The notes beneath the pieces were generated by a model. The model ran no database searches. It was not told the DNA's origin and saw nothing but the letters and a program-made list of their open reading frames with translations. A stretch of 64,000 nt of DNA, from assembly GCA_035430005.1 (NCBI GenBank), contig DAOMFV010000012.1, forward strand, positions 591 to 64,590, written 5' to 3'. Positions 35,523 to 59,569 of the stretch are shown one piece after another. A program made the position numbers and the translations under genes. Within the stretch, counting starts at the first letter, position 1, and each line of letters opens with the position of its first letter. This DNA comes from Gemmatales bacterium. GTDB taxonomy: Bacteria; Planctomycetota; Planctomycetia; Gemmatales; HRBIN36.

Positions 35523-36971
35523 CTATTCCGGCTCTTCCTGTGAAATGACGTTGGAACGCTCTACGGTGATGTTCAGCGAACGGAGTTTCTGTCGCAACGT
35601 GGATCGTGTGATCCCCAAAAGTTCTGCTGCACGCAGTTGATTGCCCCGAGTATGTTGCAGTACCCCCGGCAGGAGTTGTCGTTCCATGACAGCCAGGCAT
35701 TCGTCATAGATGTCACGGGACCCCGATTCGAGACGCTCGGCGATGAAGCGATTCCAATCGAAGGTGGATGACGATGATCCTGCCTCTTCAAATGACGGCA
35801 CACCGATGAGCACGGGAAGGAACTCGGGCAGCAACACGGTTCCTGACATCTGTAGCACAGCCTGCTTCAAGACGCTTTGAAGTTCACGGACATTGCCCGG
35901 CCAATGGTATTTGCGCAAGACAAGCCGGGTCTCGGTCGGGATGACCGGCACTTCCCGCTTAATCTCCTGGGCGAAGCGCTGAATGCAATAATCGGTGAGA
36001 AGATCGAGGTCGTCGCCCCGTTCCCGCAGGGGTGGCACACGAATCGAGAAAACATTGAGTCGATAATAGAGATCGGACCGAAACTGCCCGGCAGCCATGC
36101 GCTTATCGAGGTCAGCGTTGGTGGCAGCCAGGACACGCACATCGACCTGGATGGTATCGGTTCCGCCTACCCGCTCAAAGCACCGTTCTTGGAGCACTCG
36201 CAGCAGCTTGACCTGGGCTGATACTGTCATCTCGCCGATTTCATCCAGCAGCAACGTGCCGCCGGTGCATTGTTCAAACTTGCCGATACGGCGGCGGTCG
36301 GCTCCGGTGAACGCTCCCTTTTCGTGACCAAACAGTTCACTTTCGATCAGGCTGTCTGGAATGGCCCCACAGTTGATGGCGACGAATGGTTTCTCCTTCC
36401 GCTGGCTGTGCTGGTAGATGGCCCGAGCGATGAGTTCCTTGCCGGTGCCACTTTCGCCAAGGATAAGGACGGTCTCGTCGGTGGAAGCGACCCGACCGAT
36501 GGCCTTGTAGACTTCCTGCATGGTGGGACAGCGGCCGATCAAGGCGTCGCCTTCGATCTTTCCATTAGTGTCGTTTGTTTCGGAAAGCAGTGCCGGAACC
36601 GTCATGAGTCTGCTGCTGGCGCAGGCTCGTGACACTACGTCTTGCAGGCGGCTGTACTCCACTGGCTTAAGTAGATAGTCGTAGGCACCACGCTTGATGG
36701 CTTCGATGGCCAGGTCCGCGGTGCCATGCCCGGTGATAAGAATGATGGGCACACGGGCATCGAACTGCTTCAGACGGTCAAATCCATTGAGGCCCGCCGC
36801 ATCGGGTAGATTCAGATCAAGGACGATGACATCAGGCTTGTCTTTCGTCAAAGCCTTGAGAGCATCCTGAATGTTGACTGCTTCCTGTACCGCATACTCC
36901 GGAGCATGAAAGGCCCGGCGAAACGCATGGCGGATGGCAGCTTCGTCATCAACAATCAACAGGCTATTCAT
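35523..36971 (-). CDS. sigma54-dependent response regulator (NtrC/AtoC type: REC + AAA+ + Fis HTH)
   Basis: Receiver domain (LLIVDDEAAIR, DVIVLDLNLPD), Walker A motif GESGTGKE, the GAFTGA motif (EKGAFTGA), and a C-terminal HTH (AAELLGITRSTLRQKL). Confidence 0.9.
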   Translation of the reverse strand: MNSLLIVDDEAAIRHAFRRAFHAPEYAVQEAVNIQDALKALTKDKPDVIVLDLNLPDAAGLNGFDRLKQFDARVPIILITGHGTADLAIEAIKRGAYDYLLKPVEYSRLQDVVSRACASSRLMTVPALLSETNDTNGKIEGDALIGRCPTMQEVYKAIGRVASTDETVLILGESGTGKELIARAIYQHSQRKEKPFVAINCGAIPDSLIESELFGHEKGAFTGADRRRIGKFEQCTGGTLLLDEIGEMTVSAQVKLLRVLQERCFERVGGTDTIQVDVRVLAATNADLDKRMAAGQFRSDLYYRLNVFSIRVPPLRERGDDLDLLTDYCIQRFAQEIKREVPVIPTETRLVLRKYHWPGNVRELQSVLKQAVLQMSGTVLLPEFLPVLIGVPSFEEAGSSSSTFDWNRFIAERLESGSRDIYDECLAVMERQLLPGVLQHTRGNQLRAAELLGITRSTLRQKLRSLNITVERSNVISQEEPE

Positions 36972-42086: not shown

Positions 42087-45000
42087 ATGCCACAGGACGC
42101 AAATCAACCCAAAGGCTGGCGGGGCGATGGCAACCAGCCTAAACGAACCGCAAAGTATGGTTGGAAGCCGAAATCGGCGGGCATTGAGAAATCTCTTTTA
42201 ATGCGTCGTGGCACGCAGGTGAGTTTGGCGCTGAGTGTGCTCATGTGCATGGCAGTGATGGTATTCTTGTACCTCCTGTGGAGACCCCCTGAGCAAACCA
42301 GCATCATAATTGTTGCCGCCAGGCCTTCTGCAGATGCCACCGATTTGCGGGCTCCGCTGGACTTCCATGGTTGGGAGGGTTGTCAGAAATTGATGCGCTA
42401 TGTGAAAGACGCTAAGGATATCAAAGCTGCAGAAATTCTGCCCAAAGACAAAGACCACTTATCCTTATCAGATCAGAACAGCCTTCTTGAACTAGTCACC
42501 CTGGTGCAGAACAGCAAAACCAGCAGAGTGATTGTCTATTTCGGCCTCTTTGGTTTCGCTGGAGAACATGGCCCCTGTTTATTTGGCTCACATGGCGAGA
42601 TCATCCAGGTGAGCAAAATCATTGAGGAATTGGGAAAAGTTGCCGGGAAAGGTAAGGATATCGTCCTCCTTTTCGATGCTGCCCGCTTGCCAGTCGCCCC
42701 GGAACTCGGAGTTTTGCGCAACGACTTTGTGAGTTCACTTAAGGAGAATTTGGGTGAAAAGATCAAAAATACGAACCATCTTGCGGTGATCTGTAGCAGC
42801 AGCCCTGAAGAGCGTGCCTGGAACAGCGATGAATGGGGTTGTTCTGTTTTCCTTCAGCAGGTGATTGAAGCGTTACGTGGAAAGGCCAAAGGCAAGAGTG
42901 ACGATATTACGCTGATTCAATTCTTTAAGACGGTCGAGGAGGAAACCAAACGTTGGACCCAACTGCGCTTTGTGAGCCCGCAAATCCCGACTCTATTCTG
43001 TTCTGATGAAATGAAATCTGAAAAGAGTCCCGTCATTGTCACCCAGCAAAATAAGCATGAACCACTGAAAGACACCGAAGCCTCTAACGCACCCGGGTAC
43101 GACTGGGTAGTCAATGCTGACACGCATTTGGAAAAGCTCAAGAAACATTACATTGACACCTCCAATCTGGCCAAAGCCAGGCCGCACCCGGCTGTCTATA
43201 CTCCGGTTTCCTGGCGGCGGTATCGTGAGTTGCTGGTCAGACTGGAGCAAGCTGTTCGTATGAATGGCATCATGGCATCAGACACAGCAAGAAAACTGGA
43301 CGATGAATTAATCACATTGGAACAGTTCATCAGCAAATCGCAAGCTCTAGGCTTTGAAAAAGTTAGGGATACCAACACCATCTGGCCCATCATACTGGCT
43401 GGCAAAGCAGAGGAAGTTGAAACAGCAGACGTGTTCGCAGGGAATACGGCAAATTTGGCTCAGGAAACGTTCCACAAACCCTTCAACAGCGCTGATCCAC
43501 CACCTCCAGGCGCCGAACTACACCTGGCGTACAAGCTGGCGCAGTTCTGGGATAAAGGTTCTAAGCCATTACCAGATACCTTGAAACTCGCCATCGAGAC
43601 CCGCCAACTGGCGGAACGGGCCGCTCTCGGCTGCCCTGCGAAACCTATGGAGTATTTCTACACCGAACGGCTTTGGGAATGGATACAACCTGAACTCGAG
43701 AAACTGGATGCCAGGCGGCGCATCGCTGAAGACTATCTCTTCAGTGATGAACATCAAAAAGCTGTCGAGGACTTGAATGCGTTGAAACTGGAATATCAGA
43801 CTCTGATCAACAAATGTCTGCCGCTGCAAAAAGCCTGGGATGTGTATCATTATGCCGTCTCTGAAGCCTCCTTCCTCACGAAGTGGCATGTCTTTTGCGC
43901 GGAAGAATTGCAAGACAAAGACAAAGCAACGCGTCTCCAGGAGCTTTGGCGGGAGGTTCATCTATTGGAAGAAAACTTGCGGACAATCAAATTGGAAGAA
44001 TACTTCCGGACAGTCAATCGGGATTCTACTGCCAAAGAGATGGAGGAGATGGTGAAAAGATGCCGGGAGATCAATCTGTTGATGAAAACAGAGATGAAGG
44101 ACTTCCTTATTGCGGCCAACGATAAAATCGAAAAGGCGGCTGGTTCGCAAATTCCCCGGCATCAACTTGAGCTGCTGCTGTCGTTCCCCTGGCCGATTCC
44201 GAGAGAGAGCGATGCTGACAATAGACCGGTTGCAGATCGAGTGCTCGCCATCAACAAAGCTCGCGGAGCTAGCAGAGATTTGCACAAGACCGAAGGCCCA
44301 AGCAATATTACCCCCGATCCGAAAGTCTTGGACAAGATCGTTCAGTATCGAGGCGAATTGATTAAATCGATGATGCAGAAGGTCAATCCACGTTCCGATT
44401 CATTCCCCTTCGATGGTGGCCAAAAACAAGCGAAGGAGTTGGGCAAAGAGATAGAAGCATTTTGGAGGATGTTGGCTGTTGAAGGAGCCAAAGAACAAAA
44501 GCTTGATCTTGCAGATGTCAATTCTCGATATGCCTTGGCATTTACTGCAGGAACACCTGTCGAAGTCGCCCTGAACCAGCGCGATGCAAGGTATCGAACG
44601 CTCCTGAGAGAGCACGCCAAGCGTATTTGTCGGGATCACTGGTACGATGAGACGACGGCCTATTTCAAAGCAACTGCTGATAAGTACCTGAATAACGAGG
44701 GCGTTTTTTTTATTGATCCAGATAAGGACAATGACCCGGAGCTAAGGGACTTGTTGAAAACGGACCAACTGAAATGGAAACCCTCTACGTTAGAGAGGGC
44801 TTGGACGAGTGAGCCGAGCCGGGAATGGCCAATCGAAGTAGAGAATCCACTCAAGAAGATCGAAGGTCGGATTACGCTCTGGGCTGAAAACGGTACCGAG
44901 ACGGCAATCATGTTGAAAGAGGGGGGGGAGCGACGACTCTCGATGCCGCTGAACGAAGCCAGGCGAACGCTCACTTTGGAAGCCAAGGATGCCAGCGGCG

Positions 45001-47009
45001 TGGAAAAGAGGAAAATCGATCTGGCGTTTGCACCCAAAGCTTATTTCCGGGGGCAGAAGCCCTATGAGAGTATGGGTTTTTCCCTCAATCGCCAGCCTAG
45101 CTTGATTGTGACGGAACATCCCATGAAGGAAGGCGGGACGTTTACGTTGACCAAGGCAAAGGACTTACGTTTGGGATTGGGGCATTTGGCGATTGTGTTG
45201 GATTATTCACATAGTATGAGAGTGAGTGGTGAGGCTACCAAATACAACAAGGACGGCAAGGCTATCGACTGGAATTGGCGGCGAGAGGATAGTCGTATTC
45301 GGCAAGCCATTGATGGATTGGACAAACTGCTGAAAACTTTGTCTGATGATGTAAATGAAATTGATCTAAGTATTCATGTTTTCAGTGAGGAGAACGAAAA
45401 GACGAAAGCAATTCAAGAAAAGATTAGTTTCAAAGAAGGAGATCCGTTACGAAGTGACAAAATCCAGGATTTGACGCAGCAGATAGAAATTACTGAAATG
45501 TTCATTGGCATACTTAAGAAACGAGGTGGCAAGCGAGTATTAGTACCTCATGATAATAAGATGCCAGAACTTACTTTGGATGAATTTGGTATGCAACTAC
45601 AGCGACTAACACCCTATTCAAGTACTCCTCTGCTAAAATCGATGATTGGGGCCGTCAAACCTGTAAGAAATAAGCAGAACGTTACCTTACTTGTTTTGAC
45701 TGATGGTGCCGATACATCGCTTGGAGAACTGGAAAAAACAGACGATGCCAAGATTGATACTCTCAGGAAAAGCTTTGAGAATGAGTTTTTCAATAGCGGA
45801 TTATCAATCAACATTATTCTGTTCACCACTGATAAAGACGAAAAGGCTATTGCACATAGGCAGTTCAAAGAATTCAAGAGCGACACAAGTTCGTGCGTAG
45901 TAAAGGAAGCTATTGATTCGCAAGAGCTTCTGATAGCCTTGAAAGATTCATTCAAGGCAAGAATGGAAGTTTTTGATAAGAGTAATCAAGCCATACATTC
46001 AAAGGAAAAGGATTCTCCACCATATTTTACTGCCCAAAAGATAAACTCAACAATAGGAGAACTGTCTATTTCTCCTCTACTTACAACTGGCACCTATGAC
46101 TCCCAAGTTCGTGTTGATAAGCAGCTGTTATCTTTTTTCCCAGGTGATCACTTATTTATCAAGTTGGAAAATGCGCCTCGAGGAGTGAAGTACAAACGAG
46201 AATTGTTCAAAGACGTGCTACCATTCAGCCAACCCGGACCATCTGAACGCTACATTCCTGGAGAAATCGACGGCAAGAAGACGCTGTGGCATTTGACTGT
46301 GGCGGAGAATCTCGCTCCTGGACACTTGAGGCTAACACTCGAACACGAAAAACATCGAGTGGAATCCTCAGAAGGAACTCTACCTGTTCTCAGCATGTAC
46401 CGACCGGAATTCGTCTGGTGGGATGTCAAGGCTGTGGGAACGAGCGGAAAAGAGCAGCCAGCTCAAGGCACGATTCACATCACCAAACTGCCACATTACT
46501 ACGCGCCCGGTTGGGATATCGATCAAATAGGAACCAAGAAGGATGAGAAGCTCAGGTTTCAGGCATGGGTTAGTGAAAATATTATTCAAAAGCAGCACCT
46601 CCATTCTTTTGTTCGTAGTGAATTGAAAAAGAACAACGATTGGCAAAAAATCAACAACCAGCTAATATCTGTTTCGTGCGAAACGCATGATCTCACGAAT
46701 GGTTCTCAACCGATCTCGAAGCAGGTTCCTTGCCTAGTGGTACGTTATCGACTAAGCAGTTCTGAACAACGTGTCTGGTTCGAAAAGCCTACTAGTAGCG
46801 TGAATCGATCGGATCACTATTACTTTCCTGATGCTCAGACGATGACAGTATTCTTTTCTCCGTTTAACCCCGAAGGCGATCCCGACGAGAAACTCTCGTT
46901 GGAAATGATCGACCTGGACAACTTCAAGCAACTCAAAAAGCCCGTCGTTGACACCAAAATTGACGTGTTCAAGAACTGGCAAGGTCCTCCGAATCTCGAC
47001 AGCAAGTAA
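42087..47009 (+). CDS. giant single-pass membrane protein: basic N-tail, TM, caspase-like (C14-fold) module lacking the catalytic Cys, long helical region, vWA/MIDAS domain, beta-rich C-terminus
   Basis: 1640-aa uninterrupted ORF with a GAGGAA Shine-Dalgarno sequence 8 nt upstream. The TM is at about aa 45-65. The caspase-like strands are VIVYFG..AGEHG, IVLLFDAAR and LAVICSSSPEERAWNSD..CSVFLQQVIEALRG. The vWA motifs are VLDYSHSM (DxSxS), SSTPL and LLVLTDGADT. Confidence 0.85.
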   Translation: MPQDANQPKGWRGDGNQPKRTAKYGWKPKSAGIEKSLLMRRGTQVSLALSVLMCMAVMVFLYLLWRPPEQTSIIIVAARPSADATDLRAPLDFHGWEGCQKLMRYVKDAKDIKAAEILPKDKDHLSLSDQNSLLELVTLVQNSKTSRVIVYFGLFGFAGEHGPCLFGSHGEIIQVSKIIEELGKVAGKGKDIVLLFDAARLPVAPELGVLRNDFVSSLKENLGEKIKNTNHLAVICSSSPEERAWNSDEWGCSVFLQQVIEALRGKAKGKSDDITLIQFFKTVEEETKRWTQLRFVSPQIPTLFCSDEMKSEKSPVIVTQQNKHEPLKDTEASNAPGYDWVVNADTHLEKLKKHYIDTSNLAKARPHPAVYTPVSWRRYRELLVRLEQAVRMNGIMASDTARKLDDELITLEQFISKSQALGFEKVRDTNTIWPIILAGKAEEVETADVFAGNTANLAQETFHKPFNSADPPPPGAELHLAYKLAQFWDKGSKPLPDTLKLAIETRQLAERAALGCPAKPMEYFYTERLWEWIQPELEKLDARRRIAEDYLFSDEHQKAVEDLNALKLEYQTLINKCLPLQKAWDVYHYAVSEASFLTKWHVFCAEELQDKDKATRLQELWREVHLLEENLRTIKLEEYFRTVNRDSTAKEMEEMVKRCREINLLMKTEMKDFLIAANDKIEKAAGSQIPRHQLELLLSFPWPIPRESDADNRPVADRVLAINKARGASRDLHKTEGPSNITPDPKVLDKIVQYRGELIKSMMQKVNPRSDSFPFDGGQKQAKELGKEIEAFWRMLAVEGAKEQKLDLADVNSRYALAFTAGTPVEVALNQRDARYRTLLREHAKRICRDHWYDETTAYFKATADKYLNNEGVFFIDPDKDNDPELRDLLKTDQLKWKPSTLERAWTSEPSREWPIEVENPLKKIEGRITLWAENGTETAIMLKEGGERRLSMPLNEARRTLTLEAKDASGVEKRKIDLAFAPKAYFRGQKPYESMGFSLNRQPSLIVTEHPMKEGGTFTLTKAKDLRLGLGHLAIVLDYSHSMRVSGEATKYNKDGKAIDWNWRREDSRIRQAIDGLDKLLKTLSDDVNEIDLSIHVFSEENEKTKAIQEKISFKEGDPLRSDKIQDLTQQIEITEMFIGILKKRGGKRVLVPHDNKMPELTLDEFGMQLQRLTPYSSTPLLKSMIGAVKPVRNKQNVTLLVLTDGADTSLGELEKTDDAKIDTLRKSFENEFFNSGLSINIILFTTDKDEKAIAHRQFKEFKSDTSSCVVKEAIDSQELLIALKDSFKARMEVFDKSNQAIHSKEKDSPPYFTAQKINSTIGELSISPLLTTGTYDSQVRVDKQLLSFFPGDHLFIKLENAPRGVKYKRELFKDVLPFSQPGPSERYIPGEIDGKKTLWHLTVAENLAPGHLRLTLEHEKHRVESSEGTLPVLSMYRPEFVWWDVKAVGTSGKEQPAQGTIHITKLPHYYAPGWDIDQIGTKKDEKLRFQAWVSENIIQKQHLHSFVRSELKKNNDWQKINNQLISVSCETHDLTNGSQPISKQVPCLVVRYRLSSSEQRVWFEKPTSSVNRSDHYYFPDAQTMTVFFSPFNPEGDPDEKLSLEMIDLDNFKQLKKPVVDTKIDVFKNWQGPPNLDSK

Positions 47010-47029: not shown

Positions 47030-49846
47030 ATGTCTGAAGCGAAGCCTGTTCCTTCTGGTCCTGAACGCCGTTGGCGGAAGGAGCAACCTTCGGAGTTCAA
47101 GAGCATCGAGAGGCGCGGACGGATGGCGATCTTGGCCATCGGCGCGGTCGTGCTGGCCGGTATCCTCATCGGAAGTTTATTCATGTGGGGAAGCGCTAAG
47201 CAAACCCATCTCGATTGCTACCCCTATGGCAGATACGACAACGAACTACGGGCACCGGCCCCCTGGTTCTTTCACGACGCAAACCAACTCTATCAGACCT
47301 TTGGCGTTCTGGAGACCAGAAACCCTCTTACTAAGTTGCAGCACGACTTCCTCATCAGTGATCTGAAGAGTCGTAAAGAAGAAACCATCATCATCTATAT
47401 CGCAGGTCGGGGCATTGCGCGGAATAACAAGGTCTACGTACTGCCCAGCGACGCAACGGACGTTGAGTCCAGTTGGATTTCGCTTGCTTCCATTATCGAG
47501 GCAATTACAGAAAGCCCATCAAAACACAAACTGTTGCTGTTAGACATCGCCGGCACTGCGCCCAATCTCTACACCGGGCCATTGCAGGACAGCATCGCCA
47601 ATAAGATTGATGACTATCTCGCCAAAACGTCGCCTCCCCCTTTCCCCATGCTGACCTCTTGCTCTAGAGATGAAACCAGCAACGTCATGGCTGTCACGGG
47701 CAGCAGCGTCTTTGGTCATTACCTGAATCAGGGGCTACAGGGATTAGCGAATGGCTTTGTCGACGGTCATAAAGATCAAGAAATCACCGTCAAGGAACTG
47801 GTGAAGTTTGTCAACACACGAGTCAATCGCTGGACTTGCCTGAACCTGGGACGAACGCAAACCCCCAAGTGTTACGGCCCAGAGGATATTGATTTCCTGG
47901 TAGTCCATCGACATAAAATAGCAAACTGGCTGGAAGAGCTACCCAAGCCTGCTGAAACGCCGGCACCACCCGATGAAAGCAACTTGAAAGACAAGGAGAA
48001 GCAGGAGAATAACGAGAAAAGAGAGAAAGAGCAAAAGGCGAAAGATCAGGAGAAGCTTAGATTCGTCTTCCCGAAAGAACTGGAAGAAGGCTGGAAGGTT
48101 TACGAAGTAGCCAAGAACACGCCTGAGTACGCGCTGCGCCTGGCCACGTTGAATCGTTTTGCGCATCATCTCCGCCAGTACGAGGGAACGGTGATGTTGT
48201 TCAATAACAGCCCGGAGACCGAGCGAACCCTGAACAAGCGATTGCTTACGGATTTGAGTAAACATGTTACCGATGTCACTTCAGACTTATCCAAAATTGA
48301 ACTCCAAACACGCCTGAAACAGCTTCCTAACAGCATCACTGCCCTGTGGCCCCGAAGCTGGCTGCAACTACGAACCAGGGCACCGAGAGAGATTCCCACC
48401 GAACTGGTAGATGGCTTTAACAATCTCTATTCTTCGTGGCCAAGCACTTCTGCAGGCAGCGTAAAAGCTGATCCGACGGAGAGGGAAAAAGCGTTTCTTG
48501 ATCTCGTCAGCGGCAAGAAGGACGAGAAGAACCCAGCTCCCTCTCGCTATGAGGAAGCTCTGTTTCTTTGCTGGGATAAGCTTTGTGCCGAGGATACTCG
48601 CCTCACGCTGGATCTGTTGAAACGCTCAGTGGATCTGATGACGAAGCTTCTTCCCGATGCCGTGCGCAACAAACTTCATGAGCGATGCAACGAACTGGAT
48701 ATGCTCAGATGGATTATCGAACAAAGTGAAGGAGACTCGGAATGGAACTTTTCCGGCAAAGAGTATGAGACAAACAGGGAACTTGGCCAGTATTACTTCG
48801 ACATGATTCACCAATGGCTGATGGCGGAGTATCTGTCTGAGCGATGCGCGAACGGCTATCTGCCAGACGGCGTCGGGTTTGCCAGCCGACAAGCTTCATT
48901 GGAATCAGTTAAGAAGCAGCATCAACGAATAGTCCAACAACTGCTGGAACTCAGAAATAGGAAGAGTTATCGGCCACTCTCCTCAGAAATGGTCGAGTTT
49001 GCCAAGCAATTCAAGTCTTTGTCCGGTGACTACACTAATTGCCTGAAAGACATGGATCAGGAGCGGGCTGCCCTGGATGCCTGGTGGGCCTCCGTGGCGG
49101 TCCTCCAGGCAACCGCAGAAATGATGGTCAGTGAAGATAATTCCGAGCGTTGGCAGTTGTGGGATACGCTGGCGAATAAGACCCTCCTGTTGAAGCGCCT
49201 TCTGAAAGCGACGTCTCTGGATCCATCGGCCCGGACCGACGTTATCAAGGCCCGCGACAAACTGGTTAATTCCTTCAACGACCTGAAGGATAACTTGCTG
49301 AAGAGTGGCAACCAGGAGGGAGTGAAATGGAAATCGTGCCGAGGCATTGAACGAGTGTTGAAATGCGGATTGCTCACCACAGCCGACCGAAGAAAGCTGC
49401 ATGAGTTACTCATGAAGCTACAGGAGGAGATTCACATCAGCACGGTGAATATCGAAATTCGAGATGATAAAGGCACAGAACCGCCCACTAAGCCAGAGGC
49501 ATCGCCTATGAACTCCGCTCTTCAGGCGGATCGACGAGCTGTCATTTCACGGCAATTGTTATTGCTGGGAGGGTCGACCAGGATGGAAAAAGCCAACACG
49601 ACACCCTCGGAAGAGGAGCTGCGAAATGCCTGGACCGAGGAAATGCCCGAGCTCCTTAAGGTCGCCCGCGGCAAAGAGAACTGGCTCGACGCGGCTCGCA
49701 TCGAAGCGGTATTGCCACAAACTAATACAACTGATGCTCTGTTGCAATGGCGACTCAAATCCAGCAAAACGTATTACCTATGGTTGGAAGAGCGACAAAA
49801 GCAGCTGGAAGCCCGGCAATTGCATGTTCCAGACCAACGGAAATAA
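47030..49846 (+). CDS. large single-pass membrane protein: TM + pseudo-caspase module (His->Arg, Cys->Ala) + charged linker + helical region
   Basis: 938-aa ORF starting 20 nt after the previous stop. The caspase-fold pattern is TIIIYIAGRGIARNNKVYVLPSDA, KLLLLDIAGTAP, MLTSCSRDETSNV and SSVFGHYLNQGLQGLA...ITVKELVKFVNTRV...QTPKCYG. Confidence 0.85.
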   Translation: MSEAKPVPSGPERRWRKEQPSEFKSIERRGRMAILAIGAVVLAGILIGSLFMWGSAKQTHLDCYPYGRYDNELRAPAPWFFHDANQLYQTFGVLETRNPLTKLQHDFLISDLKSRKEETIIIYIAGRGIARNNKVYVLPSDATDVESSWISLASIIEAITESPSKHKLLLLDIAGTAPNLYTGPLQDSIANKIDDYLAKTSPPPFPMLTSCSRDETSNVMAVTGSSVFGHYLNQGLQGLANGFVDGHKDQEITVKELVKFVNTRVNRWTCLNLGRTQTPKCYGPEDIDFLVVHRHKIANWLEELPKPAETPAPPDESNLKDKEKQENNEKREKEQKAKDQEKLRFVFPKELEEGWKVYEVAKNTPEYALRLATLNRFAHHLRQYEGTVMLFNNSPETERTLNKRLLTDLSKHVTDVTSDLSKIELQTRLKQLPNSITALWPRSWLQLRTRAPREIPTELVDGFNNLYSSWPSTSAGSVKADPTEREKAFLDLVSGKKDEKNPAPSRYEEALFLCWDKLCAEDTRLTLDLLKRSVDLMTKLLPDAVRNKLHERCNELDMLRWIIEQSEGDSEWNFSGKEYETNRELGQYYFDMIHQWLMAEYLSERCANGYLPDGVGFASRQASLESVKKQHQRIVQQLLELRNRKSYRPLSSEMVEFAKQFKSLSGDYTNCLKDMDQERAALDAWWASVAVLQATAEMMVSEDNSERWQLWDTLANKTLLLKRLLKATSLDPSARTDVIKARDKLVNSFNDLKDNLLKSGNQEGVKWKSCRGIERVLKCGLLTTADRRKLHELLMKLQEEIHISTVNIEIRDDKGTEPPTKPEASPMNSALQADRRAVISRQLLLLGGSTRMEKANTTPSEEELRNAWTEEMPELLKVARGKENWLDAARIEAVLPQTNTTDALLQWRLKSSKTYYLWLEERQKQLEARQLHVPDQRK

Positions 49847-49932: not shown

Positions 49933-51762
49933 ATGTCTTCTCAAGTCAAGGTTCTTATCTCGCTGGCGCTGCTGTTGTGGAGCGGCCCTTCTTTTCTGTC
50001 AGCTCAAGAACGGTTAACGGGGCCGAAATTGGCTTTCGGTACCGACTCGGACGCGGAACGAGCGAGTGCCGAGATGAAGTCTTTTGACCTGCGGCCCAAT
50101 GTCAAATTGCCTTTTTATGTCTTCATCAAGAACTCCGAAATTGATCCAAGGACTATGGTCTTGACTATCACCTGTCTGCAAATGCAGGAACCGACGAAGC
50201 AAGCCGAATCCAAAAAGCTGACTATCGAGGACCTGAAGATTCCGGGCAAAGGTAAAAACGACCTAAAAGATAAGATCCTGGCCGTCCCCTTTCCCAAACT
50301 CGATGACAAGGGAATTAACCTGGGCCTTGCTCAGCAACTGATCTTTAAGCTCGAAGATTCTGAGCGAAGAGTGAAGCTCGATGAAAAAACGATCCAGCTG
50401 AACGTCATGAAAACCGAAGAATATCTTTCGTTCGATCCGTCGCCGGAAATTAACAGTAAAGGGCAACTGGTGGTCAGCGTGAAGCCTACGGCGAAATTCC
50501 GCGGGCCGCCCTGCCAGTTGGAACTTGACTGGTCACGACTGAAGAACCTGGTGCCCGATCAATCCCCCAGCGGCGCCATGAAAGGCGAGGTAGACGATCA
50601 GGAAAACAAGAAAGCCACTCTCTCCATCAATAAATTGCGATTCAACAAGGATAGCAGCGATCATGGCTTCTTCTCCATCAAAGTAGATGACGTGGCGCGA
50701 GCCAGGACCTGGCTGGCTACTGACATGGAATCCACCGCCCGGCTCGATACGCTCCCGGCCAATACGCTCCGCATCGTCACAGAGAAGTATTTCCTGTCGG
50801 ATGCCAAGGACAAGCTCATGGTTTGCTTTGAAGTGGATAACCCGTCAGACCCCGGCAACACTAAACTGGATTTCGGAAGAGATTTATCGGAAACCGGTAA
50901 GTTTGTTGAGTATCATCGTCCCCACTATCGCAACGAAAGTGTTTCCCTACAGACAGATGAGAAAGAGAAAAACGCACTCTTCTTGAAGCCGAACGTCTCT
51001 GATTGGAAGCTGGAGATCTCTTCAGAAGGCCTGGCGGGAACGGCCTTGTTTCGAGCCAGTCTGATTACTCCCAATGATCGTTTTGATAAAGAGACAAAGA
51101 CGATCTTCAGCAAGGCAGTGGCCAAGATCGACCCAATTACCATCCGGGACAGCAAAAACCAGGTCAAAGAGCCGCAGGCGACTTTTCTTCCCGGCGAGAT
51201 GATCAACATCGAGGTGAAGGCACGATGTCCTGAAACTGAGATAACGGAAGTGATGGTGTACGCCGGCGAAGCGGTGCCCGTCCGGGCGGACAACAACAAA
51301 CTCTACGATACCACCAAGCTTATCAGGGCGACATTCAATAATGGAGCCTGGTCAGCTGGCGTGGAAGTGCCCGATAAGAAAGGCAGTTACAAACTGTTCG
51401 CGATCGCCTGGAATGGCGTCGGGCTTCCCTCGACGGAACGACGGGAACTGAAAGTCGTCGACCCGGTACCCGTCACGGATAAGGAGAAATTAGGCAGCAT
51501 CAAGGGAAGGGTAGTCGGCGGGACTGATGAGGTTTCGCAGAAAGAAGTGCCGGTAACCCTCGAAGACAACAATAAGAAGGTTATCAAATCGACGAAGACG
51601 GATGATAAGGGCGCTTTTGAATTCAAGGATGTTCCTGCCGGCAGCTATCTCATTCAGTGCAAACGAGGCACAGGGATAGCAACGGTCAAAGACAAGGTTG
51701 ATGTGACTGTTGAAAACGGCAAAGAAACCATATTGAAGAAGCCTTTGAATCTACACCGATAA
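49933..51762 (+). CDS. secreted beta-rich protein with C-terminal carboxypeptidase-regulatory-like (CarboxypepD_reg) domain
   Basis: Signal peptide MSSQVKVLISLALLLWSGPSFLSAQE, with AAGGAT 6 nt upstream of ATG 49933. The C-terminus GSIKGRVVGG...TKTDDKGAFEFKDVPAGSYLIQC fits the CarboxypepD_reg fold. Confidence 0.8.
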   Translation: MSSQVKVLISLALLLWSGPSFLSAQERLTGPKLAFGTDSDAERASAEMKSFDLRPNVKLPFYVFIKNSEIDPRTMVLTITCLQMQEPTKQAESKKLTIEDLKIPGKGKNDLKDKILAVPFPKLDDKGINLGLAQQLIFKLEDSERRVKLDEKTIQLNVMKTEEYLSFDPSPEINSKGQLVVSVKPTAKFRGPPCQLELDWSRLKNLVPDQSPSGAMKGEVDDQENKKATLSINKLRFNKDSSDHGFFSIKVDDVARARTWLATDMESTARLDTLPANTLRIVTEKYFLSDAKDKLMVCFEVDNPSDPGNTKLDFGRDLSETGKFVEYHRPHYRNESVSLQTDEKEKNALFLKPNVSDWKLEISSEGLAGTALFRASLITPNDRFDKETKTIFSKAVAKIDPITIRDSKNQVKEPQATFLPGEMINIEVKARCPETEITEVMVYAGEAVPVRADNNKLYDTTKLIRATFNNGAWSAGVEVPDKKGSYKLFAIAWNGVGLPSTERRELKVVDPVPVTDKEKLGSIKGRVVGGTDEVSQKEVPVTLEDNNKKVIKSTKTDDKGAFEFKDVPAGSYLIQCKRGTGIATVKDKVDVTVENGKETILKKPLNLHR

Positions 51763-51809
51763 TCGTCGGCGAACTAGTGCCATACTCAAGGAGGTAGTGG
51801 CTCAGATTA

Positions 51810-51897
51810 CTCCTCCCCTTACCAAGGGGAGGTTGGGTGGGGTTAATTACTACGAAGAAATTACCCCCTCCAACTCCCCCTTGGAAAGGGGGAGAGA
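51810..51897. repeat. PAL-B double-hairpin repeat (long form), inverted copy of 5397-5483
   Basis: CTCCTCCCCTTACCAAGGGGAGGTTGGGTGGGG ... TTACCCCCTCCAACTCCCCCTTGGAAAGGGGGAGAGA is the reverse complement of the two ends of the 5397-5483 copy, with a different centre. Confidence 0.85.
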
Positions 51898-52000
51898 ATG
51901 AAACTGACCCACTACCCTCAAGGAAGAAGGTGCGGTTGGGATTGTGTCGAATTTTGCTGGTTGATAGTTCGACAGATCAAAAGTCATCCGGAGTGATACC

Positions 52001-52408
52001 ATGCCGTTCTCTATTCCCTGGTTGTCGGTTATGGCAGCGGCGATCGCCTACTTTGTGCTGGGCGCGCTGTGGTATGGTTACTTCGGCGATGCCTGGCTGA
52101 AAGAACTGCATAAACGTAAAGAACAACTCGATACCAAAGACCCTGCCCCCTATCTGGTAGCGGCTCTGGGGGCCGTGCTGAACGCGACAGCTACCGCTGC
52201 CGTTCTCGGCTGGGTGATGCCTTCTACGCAAACCACGCTTCTGGCAGTGTTCATCACCACGCTCTTTCTGGGTGGAGCTGTAGTGGCTGCCGGCGCGGCC
52301 AAACATTATGCTTTTTCGGGCTGGTCGTGGAGACTTTACGCCATCGATATGGGGCATGATCTGGCAGGCTTCTTCCTCATGAGCCTGATCATCGCACTAC
52401 TGAAGTAG
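52001..52408 (+). CDS. DUF1761-family membrane protein
   Basis: N-terminus WLSVMAAAIAYFVLGALWYGYFGDAWLK, four TM segments, and a length of about 135 aa. Confidence 0.6.
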   Translation: MPFSIPWLSVMAAAIAYFVLGALWYGYFGDAWLKELHKRKEQLDTKDPAPYLVAALGAVLNATATAAVLGWVMPSTQTTLLAVFITTLFLGGAVVAAGAAKHYAFSGWSWRLYAIDMGHDLAGFFLMSLIIALLK

Positions 52409-53519
52409 CGACTTCAGGAATCGCTCCACCCCTGACGGGCCTGCCTTTCCACTGCACGAGAATCATCATCGCCATCCCGGCGGCAAATAACCCGATGCTG
52501 ATTGTCTGCGAGATGGTGAAGTTGCCTACATACTCAGGATTATCCAACCGCAGTTGTTCAATGAGGTAGCGGTTGATGGAGTAGGTCATCATAAGCAGGG
52601 CGATGACCGCCCCTTCTCTGCGTCGCAACGGATAGTATGCCGAAAGCAGCAGGCACAGGATGATTCCATCCAGCGCCATGTAGAGTTGCGTTGGCAACAG
52701 GGGCAGGCTCGGCGGGGGCACAAACGTCAGATTCTTCGTTTCTCCATGGCGTTTGACGGTGATCGTCACTTCTTCGTAAGGTCTGACAGCGATCAATGCC
52801 TGGTTGATGGCATCTCGTGTCAGCGTGGCGTGCCCATTGATCGATTCAACGAGATCGTCTTTTTGCAGTCCAGCCTTCTCAGCCGAAGAACCAAAGTCAA
52901 CAGCAACGATGGTGCAGTCATCCTTGATATCCATGCCCAGTTGCATACCAAATGTTGTCTGCCAGCCTCGCAGCCAGACGACTTCATGATAAGGATTGCT
53001 ATTGGCAGGAAATTGCACAGTCATCGAACTGGGCACATGCGCGGGGTCAGCGACATCGCCATAACAGCAGCCATTGAGGAAGCAGCCTATCCGACCGAAA
53101 GCAATGCCCAAGGCAATGGAAGGCGCCAACCAGTCGGCGATTTGCAGCGTTCGCACCTTGGCCGGCTTTGCTACATAGCGATACGCCAGCAGGTACCCCA
53201 GAAGACCCCCTGGAATCGCACCATAGAGCACCAGGCCCCCTTCCCAGATCTTGACGAACTGCTGAATGCCTTCCCAGAGGTTTATGGGCGGTTTCTGATC
53301 GACAAACATTGAGAGCAACCGAGCACCAATGACACCGCCAACGAAGATATACAGCCCCACGTCCCACGGTATGGTAGAGAAATACCCTTCCCGCTTCGCC
53401 CGTCGTCCCGCGAGCCAAGCCGATGCCACGAAGGCGATGATCAGCATCACGCCGAAGCCAAAGATGGGCATTCTGGCATCGCCGAAGGGCAGGGGGATGT
53501 AGAAGAGGACTTGTCGCAT
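52389..53519 (-). CDS. lgt: prolipoprotein diacylglyceryl transferase with an inserted PDZ-like domain
   Basis: Lgt signature FGRIGCFLNGCCYG and an Lgt-like N-terminus. An extra ~90-aa segment (AVDFGSSAEKAGLQKDDLVESINGH...VTITVKRHGE) looks PDZ-like. The gene overlaps the convergent DUF1761 gene by 20 nt. Confidence 0.85.
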   Translation of the reverse strand: MRQVLFYIPLPFGDARMPIFGFGVMLIIAFVASAWLAGRRAKREGYFSTIPWDVGLYIFVGGVIGARLLSMFVDQKPPINLWEGIQQFVKIWEGGLVLYGAIPGGLLGYLLAYRYVAKPAKVRTLQIADWLAPSIALGIAFGRIGCFLNGCCYGDVADPAHVPSSMTVQFPANSNPYHEVVWLRGWQTTFGMQLGMDIKDDCTIVAVDFGSSAEKAGLQKDDLVESINGHATLTRDAINQALIAVRPYEEVTITVKRHGETKNLTFVPPPSLPLLPTQLYMALDGIILCLLLSAYYPLRRREGAVIALLMMTYSINRYLIEQLRLDNPEYVGNFTISQTISIGLFAAGMAMMILVQWKGRPVRGGAIPEVATSVVR

Positions 53520-53581
53520 GGGGGTATTCTACACAAGAGTCGAAAATCGCACTATGGCAGATGACAATGATTAGAGAGCCA

Positions 53582-55099
53582 TTACCAATCGATTTGCTCC
53601 CAGACAGCCAACAGCTTGGCTCCCTTTGCTCGATTAACCTCTGCCATTGCAGCAATTCTGCCTCGAAGATGTTCAGGAAAATCAGGATGTTGATAACGGT
53701 TCTGGCTGGCACCCCCCTGCTTGTTGCAGTTATGCAGAATCGCTTTCAGTTCGTCATACTCGGCACGGCGGACATTGCACTTTTCGTTGACGACTACGCC
53801 GCACACTTCCTGTCTTTGACTTTGCCGCATGAGATGGGTTTTCTTCAGGTTCAATCGGAAGCCTTCTTGTTCAACGATGGTGTGCATCAATGTCATCATC
53901 GAAAGACGTGTACGCCCTAGTGGACGATCTCCGGAGAGAGTGAGATCATCGGCGTAGCGGGTGTAGTGCCAGCCTTTTTGTTTTGCCAGATAAGCTAGGC
54001 GAAGATCAAGATGATAGGCAGCCAGATTGGCCAATGCCGGTGAAGTGGGCGCGCCCTGGGGCAAGTGACGTTCACGCCAGCATTTCATCTGCAGCCATTG
54101 CTCAGGCTGATGATCGTACCGTGGATGGGTACGCCAAACCTCATCCGGGGTGGCCTTGGTACAGAGCGCAGCCAGGTTGCGAGCTACCGTCCGGGGATAC
54201 CCCATGCGGCGGAAGATGGCCATCACCTTGAACTGATGCACGGAAGGAAAGAAGTCAGCCAGATCGAAGCTAATGACCACTTCCTGCTTCAGATGCTGTT
54301 TGGCATTGGTCACGATCGATCGCCCGGCACGAAAGCCATGGACCGCAGCGTGTGGCGGAGCCTGATCGAGGATGCCATGCAGAATCTTCCGCTGAACGTT
54401 CTTGAGTCTGAGCTTGGGTATCTCCAGCAACCGGACTTTTCCCCGCTTGGAAGGTACCCAGCGGTAGCGGTAGTGATGCCGTGGGCCGAGGGGGAGATGC
54501 TGCTGTATCCCATGAAGATCAGCGAGTCCTTCGAGTTGATGAACCGACAGTCCCAGGTACTCGGCCAAGGCCGATAATGTAGTAATTGCCGGCACAGGCC
54601 ATCGTTCCCAGATTGTCTGCATCTGTGGTGAAGGACTGGGGATCTTCCGAAGTCTGCCTTTTGATTCTCGGTCGGTCAGCCAGGTGATTAATTTAAGTTG
54701 TATCAACTCGCCATAATCCTTGGTCCAATGCCGTCCTGGTGTTCCAATCTTCGGACAACGATAAAGCTGATGCAACAACGACTCTTCATCCATCATTCTG
54801 TTCTGAATGAGTCGATAATACTCGGCCACCGGTTTGGCTAAAGACTTGGGCAGCCCCAGTCGCTTCTTCAGATGTGCAACGAATTCATCAGCCGACCGGG
54901 TCTCCAGCAGCACAATAGCTACCAGCCGAAGCAGACGCCTTTTCAGTTTATATCGATGGTTGATCACTATCGGGCGTCTCACGCATTTCTGCGGTAAGAC
55001 TGTCGAGGTAAAGGAAAAGTGCCTGGCAGCCCAACGAGGCTCGTGATGCGAGGCCAATTCTGTGTGAAGCACAGTCGCGGCCTTGCTCGGAAATGTCAC
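53582..55099 (-). CDS. retron-type reverse transcriptase with N-terminal extension
   Basis: RT motifs are close to Ec86: HYRYRWVPSKRGKVRLLEIPK, NAKQH (NAxxH), ISFDLADFFPSV, LPQGAPTSPALANL, YTRYADDLTLS, VCGVVVNEK (VTG-like) and HLRGRIAAMAEVN. The longest ORF starts at GTG 55099. In-frame GTG 54982 or 54967 are alternative starts downstream of the candidate ncRNA. Confidence 0.85.
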   Translation of the reverse strand: MTFPSKAATVLHTELASHHEPRWAARHFSFTSTVLPQKCVRRPIVINHRYKLKRRLLRLVAIVLLETRSADEFVAHLKKRLGLPKSLAKPVAEYYRLIQNRMMDEESLLHQLYRCPKIGTPGRHWTKDYGELIQLKLITWLTDRESKGRLRKIPSPSPQMQTIWERWPVPAITTLSALAEYLGLSVHQLEGLADLHGIQQHLPLGPRHHYRYRWVPSKRGKVRLLEIPKLRLKNVQRKILHGILDQAPPHAAVHGFRAGRSIVTNAKQHLKQEVVISFDLADFFPSVHQFKVMAIFRRMGYPRTVARNLAALCTKATPDEVWRTHPRYDHQPEQWLQMKCWRERHLPQGAPTSPALANLAAYHLDLRLAYLAKQKGWHYTRYADDLTLSGDRPLGRTRLSMMTLMHTIVEQEGFRLNLKKTHLMRQSQRQEVCGVVVNEKCNVRRAEYDELKAILHNCNKQGGASQNRYQHPDFPEHLRGRIAAMAEVNRAKGAKLLAVWEQIDW

Positions 55100-55182
55100 A
55101 GGCAGGATATCCCCGGGGTAACCCCGGAGTGCTCATCACTCTGTTTCCAAAGTAACAAACTGCTTGAGCTGCCAGGCACTTT
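55016..55182 (-). ncRNA. candidate retron msr/msd non-coding RNA (a1/a2 inverted repeats)
   Basis: On the RT strand, AAAGUGCCUGGCAGCUCAA (55182->55164) pairs with UUGGGCUGCCAGGCACUUU (55034->55016). That is 19 bp, of which 15 are contiguous perfect and one is a G-U pair. The first unpaired base after a1 is G (55163) in an A-G-C context. Internal hairpins are GAGUG/CACUC, CUCCGGGG/CCCCGGGG and CUGUG/CACAG. Confidence 0.4.
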
Positions 55183-55204
55183 GGCATCATAACACTCTTT
55201 CGCA

Positions 55205-55243
55205 CGATGAAAACGACAAAACGGGGAACCATGGTCCCCGTTT
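55205..55243 (-). terminator. Rho-independent terminator of tsf
   Basis: On the minus strand, AAACGGGGA pairs with TCCCCGTTT around a 7-nt loop, followed by TTGTCGTTTTC. It begins 31 nt after the tsf stop. Confidence 0.75.
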
Positions 55244-55273
55244 ATCGCTTGTCATTATTTAGGATGCAAATGA

Positions 55274-56122
55274 CTAGCTCAACTCACCCACCTTGAACCG
55301 CTTGAAGCTCACCACTTCCAGTTTGGTGGGGGCCAGCACGTCGGCGATGGTCTTGCTGTCGTCCTTGACGAACTTCTGTTCGACCAGCACGTTCTCGCTT
55401 GTCCAGGTCTTGACCTTGCCTTCGACGATCATCTGAATGACCTTCTCGGGTTTGCCGGTAGCCTTGGCCTGAGCTTCAGCGATCTCGCGTTCCTTGGCGA
55501 GCACTTCAGCGGGAATGTCGCCACGCAGGGCATACTTGGTCTGCGAAGCGGTGATGTGCATGCCCACTTCCTTGAGCAGGGCATCGTTCACATTGGTGGT
55601 CGCGCCCTTGAGCTGGAGCAGAGTACCGACCGTGCCATCGTGGTGGATGTACTGGCCAAACGGACCGCCGGTGAGGACAGCGAACCTGGCAATCTTCATG
55701 TTCTCACGGATGAGGCCGATCAACTCTTCGATGCGATCCTTGACCGTTCGCTTGCCATCGAAGCTGGCAGCGTTGAACTCATCGACGGAAGAAGGAACCT
55801 TGGCAGCCTTCACCAGCCACTCGGCAAGCTCGTTACCGAGCTTGATGAATCCATCAGCCTTCGTGACCGGCGCGCTTTCGCAGCGTAGTTCGACGATGGC
55901 AGCTTTGCTGTGATCGGGAGTGACATGGATGAAGACTCGCCCCTCGGCTGCTTCACGGTCGGCTTTGCCGGCAGCGATGTTGGCGTTGCGTTTGCGGAGT
56001 TCGTCCATCGCCTTCTGGAAGTCGCCGCCCGCTTCGGTGAGGGCCTTCTTGCATTCCATCATCGGGCGGTCGGTCATGTTACGCAGCCGCATCACGTCGG
56101 CGGCATTGATTGCAGTGCTCAT
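55274..56122 (-). CDS. tsf: elongation factor Ts
   Basis: The N-terminal UBA-like motif VMRLRNMTDRPMMECKKALTEAGGDFQKAMDELRK is typical of EF-Ts. It lies downstream of rpsB, as in the conserved operon. Confidence 0.92.
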   Translation of the reverse strand: MSTAINAADVMRLRNMTDRPMMECKKALTEAGGDFQKAMDELRKRNANIAAGKADREAAEGRVFIHVTPDHSKAAIVELRCESAPVTKADGFIKLGNELAEWLVKAAKVPSSVDEFNAASFDGKRTVKDRIEELIGLIRENMKIARFAVLTGGPFGQYIHHDGTVGTLLQLKGATTNVNDALLKEVGMHITASQTKYALRGDIPAEVLAKEREIAEAQAKATGKPEKVIQMIVEGKVKTWTSENVLVEQKFVKDDSKTIADVLAPTKLEVVSFKRFKVGELS

Positions 56123-56140
56123 GGGTCAGTCCTTCATAGA

Positions 56141-56303
56141 GGAGTCAGGAGCCAGGAGTCAGAATCAAGCAGAGACTGAGCTTGGGCTACCGAGTCCTGA
56201 TTATCGTTAGTCAGGTCAACGAAGTTATTAGTTGAGAAGCAGAAGTCAGTGAGCATGTTCGCCAGATTGTCTTATTCTGGCTACTGACTCCTGACTTCTG
56301 GCT
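56141..56303. repeat. imperfect inverted GAGTCAG/CTGACTC-rich arms in the rpsB-tsf spacer
   Basis: GGAGTCAGGAGCCAGGAGTCAGAAT (56141-56165) against ATTCTGGCTACTGACTCCTGACTTCTGGCTACT (about 56275-56303). Confidence 0.5.
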
Positions 56304-56304
56304 A

Positions 56305-57255
56305 CTATTCACCAGCGGGCTCGGCTGCAGGGGCTGCCGGCACTTCGGGCTTGTCGCTGGAAGGATCGGCTGGGGCGTTACGACCACGATCGCCACCTCG
56401 GCCGCCGCCACGATTATCGCTGCGACCGCCACGTCCACCACGATCTCCATCACGCCCGCCGCGATCACCGCCTCGACCGCCACCGCCTCCACGGCGATCA
56501 CCCTTGCCTCGGCCTCGCTCGCCACGTTCTTCACGTGGCTTCTCTTCGAGTTGCTTCAGCAGTTCGGGAGGAATCGCTGCCTTGCCTTCGATGACTGCCT
56601 GGGCCAGCTTGGACAGAATCAGCTCAATGGAACGGATGCTATCGTCGTTGCCGGGAATGGGAAGATCGACCATGTCAGGATCGCTGTCGGTATCAATCAG
56701 GGCCACCACGGTGACGCCCATCTTGCGGGCTTCCTTGACGGCAATGTGTTCCTTGTGCGGATCAATGATGATGAGCGCTTCCGGGATGCGGTTCATGTCG
56801 CGGATGCCGGAGAGATTGCGGTCGATCTTCTTTCGTTCACGGGTGATCGAGCTGATCATCTTCTTGGAGTAGGTGTTGATCTGGCCGGTCGTTTCAAGAG
56901 ATTCGAGGTGGGTCAATCGCTGGAGTCGGCTACGGATGGTACGGAAGTTGGTGAGTGTGCCACCCAACCAGCGTTCGCTCACGCAGGGCATGCCGCAGCG
57001 CTGAGCTTCCCGAACGACGATTTCCTTAGCCTGTCGCTTGGTGCCGACGAACATCACCAACTTGCCCTGGCTGACGATCTTGGTGACATACTTGTAGGCA
57101 CGCAGCAGACCACGCAGGGTTTCGCGGAGATCAATAATATGGATGAGATTTCGTTTGCCGTAGATATACGGCCGCATCTTAGGGTTCCAGCGACTGGATC
57201 GGTGTCCATAGTGTACGCCGGCATCGACTAGTTCTTTCACTTCGATCAGAGCCAC
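56305..57255 (-). CDS. rpsB: 30S ribosomal protein S2 with Arg/Gly-rich C-terminal extension
   Basis: [31 protein letters not shown] is the S2 signature. The C-terminal ~80 aa are RGG/RGD-rich ([49 protein letters not shown]). Confidence 0.92.
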
Positions 57256-57406
57256 ACAATCCTCCAGGCCCTAGTGTAGGGCAGCTTGCAATCCCTGGTC
57301 ACGGCGGCCTAGACAAGGCCGATGCCGTTACGCGCCATGCACAACCACGGGTCTATTAATGTAGGGTTGAAAGGGGCCGCTGGACAGGGTATGGTAGCCA
57401 ACATCT

Positions 57407-59569
<2,163 letters not shown>

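Follow-up and report, generated by a model that had tools for sequence, protein, structure and literature searches.

A window of 64,000 nucleotides from a Gemmatales genome (contig DAOMFV010000012.1) carries, on its minus strand between tsf and lgt, a reverse transcriptase (RT) gene headed by a structured noncoding RNA (ncRNA). The two very probably make up a complete stand-alone retron of two components, an ncRNA and an intact, constrained RT with a family-specific N-terminal domain, with no conserved partner gene adjoining them. Retrons are regarded as phage defences of three parts that resemble toxin-antitoxin systems, and they serve as tools for genome editing. The role of those that have no effector is an acknowledged open question (PMC7736814; 10.1101/2020.06.21.156273). 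The locus is a clean example of an effector-less retron, with its parts mapped to the base, and a typical member of a class that is already catalogued; it adds no new kind of system. Its lineage is very large and is marked by a covarying ncRNA, a private N-terminal domain, a pace of change in the Gemmatales equal to that of housekeeping neighbours and the lack of a partner in 84 loci. Coordinates refer to the window, and features lie on its minus strand unless marked otherwise.

The noncoding RNA

The preliminary description of this DNA placed a retron-type RT between tsf and lgt, and the 505-codon open reading frame (ORF) at 53582..55099 was confirmed, with tsf and rpsB upstream and lgt downstream. 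The ncRNA was absent from that description and was located in the present analysis. It occupies 55016..55182 and measures about 167 nt from a1 to a2, with a minimum free energy (MFE) of −84.4 kcal/mol (z = −5.3 against shuffled sequences). Its ends are two 19-nt inverted-repeat arms, a1 (AAAGUGCCUGGCAGCUCAA, 55164..55182) and a2 (UUGGGCUGCCAGGCACUUU, 55016..55034), which are 95% complementary and have 129 nt between them. The first unpaired base past a1 in the fold, G55163 in the context CAA-G-C, is the candidate priming (branching) G by analogy with characterised retrons (PMC6868368, PMC10849725); the G after a1 is preceded by CAA or CGA in most family members. Facing it, directly 5' of a2, stands G55035, an invariant column in the 26-sequence alignment A3 and the putative first templated base. 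Opposing G residues of this kind are a retron hallmark (PMC7736814, Fig. 2 legend). With G55163 after a1 and G55035 before a2 both found in the sequence, the predicted fold is the canonical layout of a retron ncRNA (PMC7736814; PMC6868368).

Two msr hairpins and the msd region lie between the arms. Hairpin 1 (55131..55160) has a 13-bp stem in the MFE fold, varies in sequence across the family and stands outside the covariance model described below. Hairpin 2 (55111..55129, CUCCGGGG-UUA-CCCCGGGG) is nearly invariant across the family, with the exact motif present in about 30 loci and 99.4% pairing among 83 sequences, and is the likely element by which the RT recognizes its RNA. The msd region (55039..55103) folds into a hairpin with a core stem at 55086-55048 and would serve as the template of the predicted multicopy single-stranded DNA (msDNA). 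All three msd helices covary; one pair, for example, is changed on both sides in 33 of 81 sequences. Taken from the start G and the AU-rich stretch past hairpin 2, the msDNA would measure some 55-70 nt (PMC10849725).

The conservation of this structure was seen in three homologous loci, whose a1/a2 pairs differ in sequence and sit at an equal distance upstream of the RT. The regular expression CCGGGG-NNN-CCCCGG, which describes hairpin 2, matched about 425 nt upstream of the RT match in about 30 loci. A flanking inverted-repeat pair is present in all 27 loci checked and forms a convincing a1/a2 stem, spanning 156-186 nt, in 24 of them. The RNAalifold consensus of a 26-sequence MAFFT alignment contains compensatory changes in 20 of its 32 pairs. 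The covariance model built from this alignment, R1, was run on 84 sources and gave a single match in 83 of them, each time immediately upstream of the RT and on its strand; the one exception is short of upstream sequence. It also matches all four loci that were fetched later. Within the window R1 matches at 55014-55184 (114.9 bits, E = 4e-21), with no second credible match in the 64 kb. When the 83 sequences are aligned, 96.6% of cells pair, compared with 38-48% when the partners are slid by 1-3 columns, both-sides changes occur in 29 of the 32 pairs and all 13 modelled a1/a2 pairs have compensatory changes, counts that come from a model-fitted alignment and are biased toward the structure. 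The independent MAFFT/RNAalifold result agrees with them.

The ncRNA is 86-91% identical in nucleotides to its counterparts in the two relatives L084 and L087, with 69-82% identity for the RT gene and 82-89% for tsf. At 91% identity where the RT gene has 69% and tsf 82%, it is the best-conserved segment of the locus. An Rfam scan of 51500-57600 at E ≤ 5 returned no retron msr or intron RNA, only chance miRNA-like matches. The preliminary description was prepared to give up the retron reading if homologues had no conserved upstream ncRNA; what they have is a conserved, strongly covarying ncRNA with the anatomy of a retron.

The reverse transcriptase and its N-terminal domain

The ncRNA takes in the first 84 nt of the listed ORF (55099-55016; codons 1-28), and RT homologues begin near residue 45-50 of the 505-aa ORF. 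A database protein of identical sequence begins at V45 (461 aa), while the GenBank entry HQR05941.1, from a Gemmatales metagenome-assembled genome (MAG), starts at V40 (466 aa). Given the overlap with the ncRNA and these starts, the coding region is 53582..54967, with a GTG start at 54967 and a product of 461 aa, or 53582-54982, with the alternative GTG at 54982 and a product of 466 aa.

The palm and fingers of the enzyme (RVT_1) are encoded by 53792..54451 (Pfam, residues 217-436 of the 505-aa ORF, E = 8e-23). The Ec86-like motif set claimed for the protein was located in its entirety: NAKQH at 54307-54293, YTRYADDLTLS at 53965-53933 with its YADD at 53956-53945, VCG at 53806-53798 and HLRGRI at 53671-53654. 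LPQGAPTSP lies at 54064-54038. Alignment with Protein Data Bank (PDB) entries bore out the statement that Ec86 RT has the identical YTRYADDLTLS block. H269 and G434 are invariant among 30 homologues, and the T of VTG is replaced by C. The protein carries the features by which a retron RT is generically defined, namely region X (NAxxH), region Y (VTG, its G being the most conserved) and a YxDD catalytic core (PMC7736814).

Profile, sequence and fold comparisons agree on the class of the enzyme. The best PADLOC model is RT_other (3e-138, 460 bits), followed by RT_outgroup (4e-131, 436 bits), which carries a retron label, RT_XIII (3e-99, 331 bits) and then other retron types. The NCBIfam retron models match below their cutoffs, and no type is assigned from them. 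The PDB sequence matches are to retron RTs, led by Ec86 (4e-32) and Ec67 (1e-26) and continuing with Kva2, Ec78 and Ec83. The AlphaFold (AF2) model has a predicted local distance difference test score (pLDDT) of 89 and a predicted template-modelling score (pTM) of 0.82. Its best Foldseek match is Ec86 RT (7v9x; E = 1e-19, TM 0.80, 28% identity), and a further 17 retron RT chains rank ahead of the first matches to RTs of group II introns and diversity-generating retroelements (DGRs). The enzyme is a retron RT. Clustering outside the retrons had been named beforehand as the outcome that would count against this assignment; the best hidden Markov models (HMMs), the PDB sequences and the predicted fold are all those of retrons.

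Residues 1-122 of the 461-aa protein (54602..54967) form an N-terminal extension, a five-helix domain specific to this RT family. The extension had been put at 120-160 aa beyond the Ec86 core, of which about 120 aa stands and the upper figure does not, query residue 167, in the 461-aa numbering, corresponding to Ec86 residue 47. Both AlphaFold models show a five-helix bundle (residues ~2-102), a linker and two short helices leading into the RT. Foldseek comparison of the isolated domain with the PDB gave nothing significant (best E = 3; probability at most 0.41). A profile of the domain matched 809 cluster representatives among 1.84 billion representative proteins, and each of the 11 matches inspected is a member of the same RT family or a fragment of such a member, truncated or frameshifted. 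The domain belongs to this RT family alone and bears no mark of an enzyme or toxin. Other family members match RT_other and RT_outgroup over their full length, the N-terminal domain included; the window RT and its nearest relatives match these profiles only from position ~126-142, which indicates that the domain has diverged in the Gemmatales subclade. Direct alignment with the family domain shows the same layout with two insertions. N-terminal extensions are also found in myxobacterial retron RTs that have separate effectors (PMC6868368).

The arrangement of signals around the two components suggests a transcription unit of their own. The intrinsic terminator of tsf, a stem-loop followed by a T-run (55219..55243), divides tsf from the retron unit, and its hairpin is preserved through compensatory changes in L084 and L087. 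A scan for a sigma-70-like consensus revealed a promoter-like site (55186..55213; TTTTCA, 16 nt, TG-n-TATGAT) that ends 4 nt before a1. Both of its hexamers are conserved in the same two relatives, and it is the putative promoter of the ncRNA-RT unit. In the proposed mechanism, a transcript of the ncRNA and RT would be driven from just past the tsf terminator, and the RT would bind the nearly invariant msr hairpin (55129-55111), use as primer the 2'-OH of G55163, where the a1/a2 stem has its inner end, copy the msd from G55035 and stop near the AU-rich stretch past hairpin 2. The resulting branched msDNA would have ~55-70 nt and remain bound to the RT. The rules for initiation and termination are those of PMC10849725, in which RT-DNA production is intermediate for clades other than 2, 9, 10, 3 and 4 and no member of this RT family is named. 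That this RT synthesizes msDNA is likely.

Neighbourhood and place among known retrons

The RT belongs to a very large family. At least 7863 proteins, of 8000 candidates scored, match it at E ≤ 1e-20 and are typically 440-460 aa long, and a genome scan yielded 80 loci in Planctomycetota, Acidobacteriota (Bryobacterales), Myxococcota, Burkholderia, Actinomycetota (Solirubrobacterales) and others. For a neighbourhood test, all-against-all clustering was applied to the ORFs called in 84 loci. Leaving aside the RT and the shadow ORFs that overlap its gene, no neighbour family occurs in more than 8 of the 84 loci, and those that recur, including histidine kinases, an ABC-type transport protein, MutL and DUF1501, are housekeeping genes or paralogous kinases. 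Pfam scans found no SWIM or HEAT/ARM protein among the neighbours, nor does such a family recur in the 84-locus clustering. A PADLOC scan of the ten flanking ORFs gave no defence match, bar a generic AAA+ regulator 17 kb away. This sigma-54-type regulator (35523-36971) is matched strongly by RtcR/PspF-like models (3e-108), probably as a generic domain match and not as a defence gene. The earlier remark that no effector is visible holds for the locus and for the family, no adjacent effector-like gene having emerged from the 84 loci or the ten-ORF scan; of the third part of a tripartite system, neither an adjacent effector gene nor a recognisable fused effector domain is present.

Mestre et al. 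(2020) defined 13 retron types by their effectors and described (msr-msd)-RT cassettes that stand alone, both in clade 11 and in one branch of clade 2 (Ec107-like), suggesting that these retrons may use unknown trans effectors or have another function (PMC7736814). Millman et al. reported two RT clades that are rarely near defence genes (10.1101/2020.06.21.156273). In a 2026 SPIRE survey, clade11-A and clade11-B count as established lineages, each with a covariance model, and clade11-A is reported from Pseudomonadota, Actinomycetota and Acidobacteriota (10.64898/2026.05.14.725207). Among the retron RT models of PADLOC are two additional ones, RT_Ec107-like and RT_outgroup, which we infer to be the two stand-alone lineages. 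The RT lineage at the window locus corresponds to PADLOC RT_other (PDLC02949) and RT_outgroup (PDLC03740) and is probably the stand-alone clade 11 of Mestre et al.; this reading of the models, the host range and the architecture together make clade 11 its most likely home.

Retrons of clade 11 resemble the window locus in consisting of an ncRNA and an RT without an associated protein, and a non-defence context and apparently vertical inheritance have been discussed for them (PMC7736814), as at the locus itself. The host range of clade11-A partly matches that of the RT family in Burkholderia, Actinomycetota and Acidobacteriota. Two differences stand beside these likenesses. Clade 11 is described as essentially actinobacterial, whereas this RT family has many members in Planctomycetota, Acidobacteriota and Myxococcota, and the first ~100 aa of the Gemmatales-subclade RT have diverged strongly from the RT_other and RT_outgroup profiles.

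The nearest type that bears an effector is type XIII (clade 10: Retron-Mxa1/Mx162, Mxa2/Mx65, Sau1/Sa163 and Nex2/Ne144). It shares an N-terminal extension of the RT (PMC6868368) and vertical inheritance, including that in myxobacteria, and RT_XIII is the next-best model (3e-99). This type is, however, defined by SWIM/winged-helix (DEDE) and HEAT/ARM proteins beside the RT (PMC7736814), none of which is found at the window locus, and RT_XIII scores 130 bits below RT_other and leaves the N-terminal domain uncovered. Retron-Eco1 (Ec86), of type II-A3, offers the closest solved structure (7v9x) and shares the YTRYADDLTLS, NAxxH, QGAP-SP and VxG regions. Its ncRNA follows the same logic of a1/a2 stem, priming G, msr hairpins and msd hairpin, although the sequences are unrelated. 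Ec86 RT has 320 aa and no N-terminal domain, compared with 461-466 aa and such a domain in the window RT, and it pairs with an adjacent gene for a nucleoside deoxyribosyltransferase-like effector that has no counterpart here. The Ec107-like branch of clade 2 (RT_Ec107-like) is the other catalogued lineage without an effector (PMC7736814) and is like the window locus in this respect. Its model matches the window RT more weakly (4e-59 versus 3e-138), its RT is short and has no N-terminal domain, and its hosts differ, being Gammaproteobacteria (PMC7736814) and, in the SPIRE survey, Bacillota.

History and function of the locus

The order rpsB-tsf-[ncRNA-RT]-lgt is kept in relatives whose RTs are 81% (P0002) and 67% (P0003) identical to that of the window. 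A sister subclade (P0004-P0006) has a different, internally conserved context, upstream of an AP_endonuc_2 gene. The preliminary description called the gene inserted, which is fair as a statement of presence and absence: in a close metagenomic relative, L095 (Tsf 88% identical), tsf is followed after 108 nt (L095:397-504) directly by lgt, with no retron and no match to the covariance model. This was the one close relative recovered by a metagenome scan with Tsf, the rest being 35-49% identical, uninformative and free of model matches. Local alignment of L095 with the window places the downstream edge of the retron-bearing segment at 53546..53581, homology resuming ~22 nt after the RT stop at TGCCATAGTGCGATT (about 53560-53546). 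Set by this retron-free site, the segment runs roughly from 55270 to 53561. Over the C-terminal part of Tsf, a comparison of 124 aa with limited resolution, the retron-free L095 is closer to the window (88%) than is the retron-bearing L087 (83%), so that one loss is more parsimonious than two gains.

The dN/dS ratio (nonsynonymous to synonymous substitution) of the RT is 0.17 between the window and L084 and 0.11 between the window and L087, with 0.21 for the N-terminal domain and 0.14 for the core; lgt gives 0.105 and tsf 0.05. The dS of the RT, 0.78, falls between those of tsf (0.55) and lgt (1.18). Purifying selection has acted on the retron while it diverged together with its flanks; it is old and vertically inherited in this lineage, being neither a recent insertion nor a pseudogene. 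A composition unlike that of the housekeeping neighbours had also been claimed. It holds in so far as GC at third codon positions (GC3) is 0.565 in the RT and 0.64-0.76 in tsf, lgt and ligA, but the signal is weak: other nearby ORFs have 0.60-0.61, and the GC content of 0.531, against a window mean of 0.551, lies at the 23rd percentile of same-size windows. As evidence of horizontal transfer, this signal was set aside as too weak. No integrase, transposase or repeats flank the retron.

These observations shape a working view of function. Housekeeping flanks, vertical inheritance and the lack of defence neighbours suggest that the retron acts without a dedicated adjacent toxin, with the help of an unlinked partner from the host or in some role outside classical abortive infection. 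Besides the alignment bias mentioned above, several points weigh against a stand-alone system of two components. The msDNA, its priming G and its termination point at this locus are predictions. The lack of a conserved neighbour is compatible with an effector encoded in trans, and the window covers 64 kb of a MAG. The equation of RT_outgroup with Mestre clade 11 is itself drawn indirectly, and the SPIRE survey puts some Planctomycetota RTs in type XIII. Finally, effector association may exist in parts of the family. A planctomycete subclade of seven loci (L013, L044, L052, L055, L066, L075 and L079), divergent and with the weakest ncRNA model scores (28-46 bits), has a conserved multi-pass membrane protein of ~260 aa beside the RT, with no Pfam match. 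Its gene lies downstream on the same strand in six of the loci and upstream on the opposite strand in L055 (examples: L052:3282-4061, L066:5114-5905 and L055:4541-5359). This protein, of which the window contains no homologue, is possibly an effector comparable to the 2TM protein of type IV, or possibly a matter of synteny only.

A non-canonical or non-defence role can be put forward tentatively: the retron may be a domesticated, vertically inherited two-component system without a toxin, belonging to a very widespread lineage of soil and freshwater. If so, the N-terminal domain would give the retron a function different from that of abortive-infection retrons: for instance, housekeeping work in regulation or nucleic-acid sensing, or a new effector mechanism that resides in the RT itself.

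A classical anti-phage retron, served in trans by an effector gene located elsewhere in the genome, is rather unlikely. Functionally tested retrons mostly work with an effector (10.1101/2020.06.21.156273), Mestre et al. raised a trans effector for orphan retrons (PMC7736814), the retron is present or absent at the tsf-lgt site much as an accessory gene would be, and the Myxococcus xanthus member of the family adjoins genes for an Mrr-like nuclease and an RNase H. However, most genomes with orphan retrons have no homologues of known retron effectors (Mestre et al., PMC7736814). The ten flanking ORFs contain no defence genes, no neighbour recurs across the 84 loci, the housekeeping synteny is stable over a long divergence and the substitution rates match those of the flanks.

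The preliminary description offered three homes for the effector, fused as the N-terminal extension, encoded elsewhere or novel; none has been demonstrated, and the extension has no enzymatic or toxin-like fold. A fused tripartite retron, in which the N-terminal domain would be an effector or sensor held by the RT-msDNA complex and freed upon phage infection, as in types I-C, XI and XII, is improbable. The domain is confined to this RT family and conserved throughout it, its dN/dS of 0.21 indicates purifying selection, the confident full-length model (pTM 0.82) is consistent with one compact protein, and fused effectors are known among retrons (PMC7736814). Yet the domain has ~120 aa, is entirely α-helical and lacks a catalytic-looking fold or a PDB match. 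Whole-protein Pfam and NCBIfam matches stop short of it, and the best-stretch PADLOC matches start at residue 149 or later. The fused effectors in Table 1 of Mestre et al. (types I-C, VII-A1, XI and XII) are C-terminal enzymatic domains, this domain has diverged strongly in the subclade while the core stayed conserved, and N-extended myxobacterial retron RTs work with separate effectors (PMC6868368).

There is little to recommend a decaying or purely selfish remnant without current function. The retron has no known phenotype and has been lost in at least one close relative, but the ORF is intact with all catalytic motifs, dN/dS is 0.11-0.17, the ncRNA is the most conserved segment, full-length homologues number in the thousands, a cognate ncRNA is present in 83 of 84 sources, and the flanks hold no integrase, transposase or repeats. 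Another RT class, be it group II intron, DGR or the abortive infection (Abi), unknown-group (UG) and defence-associated RT (DRT) enzymes, which have the RVT_1 domain in common with this protein, has practically nothing left in its favour, given the scores of the group II intron RT model TIGR04416 (60.8 bits against a cutoff of 300), Drt2 (31 against 390) and Drt3a (22 against 200), the lack of an Rfam group II intron or other RNA match around the RT (51500-57600), the lack of direct repeats of the template/variable (TR/VR) type within 8.5 kb (50000-58500), where the sole direct repeats are those of the rpsB tail, the retron RTs as best fold matches and the presence of a retron-type ncRNA. The DGR and group II intron readings were rejected on these HMM scores, the Rfam scan and the repeat search.

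The function of stand-alone retrons, the class to which the window locus most likely belongs, could be approached through M. xanthus, a genetically tractable host. Its family member, P0125/Q1D0F5 (L093), has the same ncRNA. At L093:7346-9035, a gene with an Mrr_cat (restriction-endonuclease-like) domain and an RNase H gene follow the M. xanthus RT on the opposite strand. In other retrons, the maturation of msDNA requires RNase H. An identification of Q1D0F5 with retron Mx65 has points for and against it. The Asn of NAxxH is substituted in L011 and L037, close relatives of Q1D0F5, as is reported for Mx65, and the predicted msDNA of the Q1D0F5 locus has ~65 nt. The Mx65 RNA, which we take to be 49 nt long, is not a fit for that of Q1D0F5. 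Against the identity stands also the priming context of Q1D0F5, CAGC and not the GAGC quoted for Mx65 (PMC6868368); no source name says Mx65.

On the minus strand the locus reads rpsB (56305-57255), tsf (55274-56122), the ncRNA-RT unit, lgt (52389-53519) and then a DUF1761 gene. The Lgt protein has a PDZ domain inserted at about residues 190-265, an architecture found also in L084 and L095. The tail of rpsB (56405-56526) is Gly/Arg/Asp-rich and is encoded by imperfect tandem repeats with a start-to-start spacing of 21-33 nt. Between a 626-aa ORF and the DUF1761 gene lies a near-perfect hairpin of ~90 nt (51807-51899), the source of the spurious microRNA matches in Rfam, which may act as a terminator or belong to a repeat element. 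Two adjacent, very large ORFs on the plus strand, 42087-47009 (1640 aa) and 47030-49846 (938 aa), have no Pfam or PADLOC match. The 626-aa protein, which has a CarboxypepD_reg-like C-terminus, comes after the 938-aa ORF, and both are syntenic in L084.

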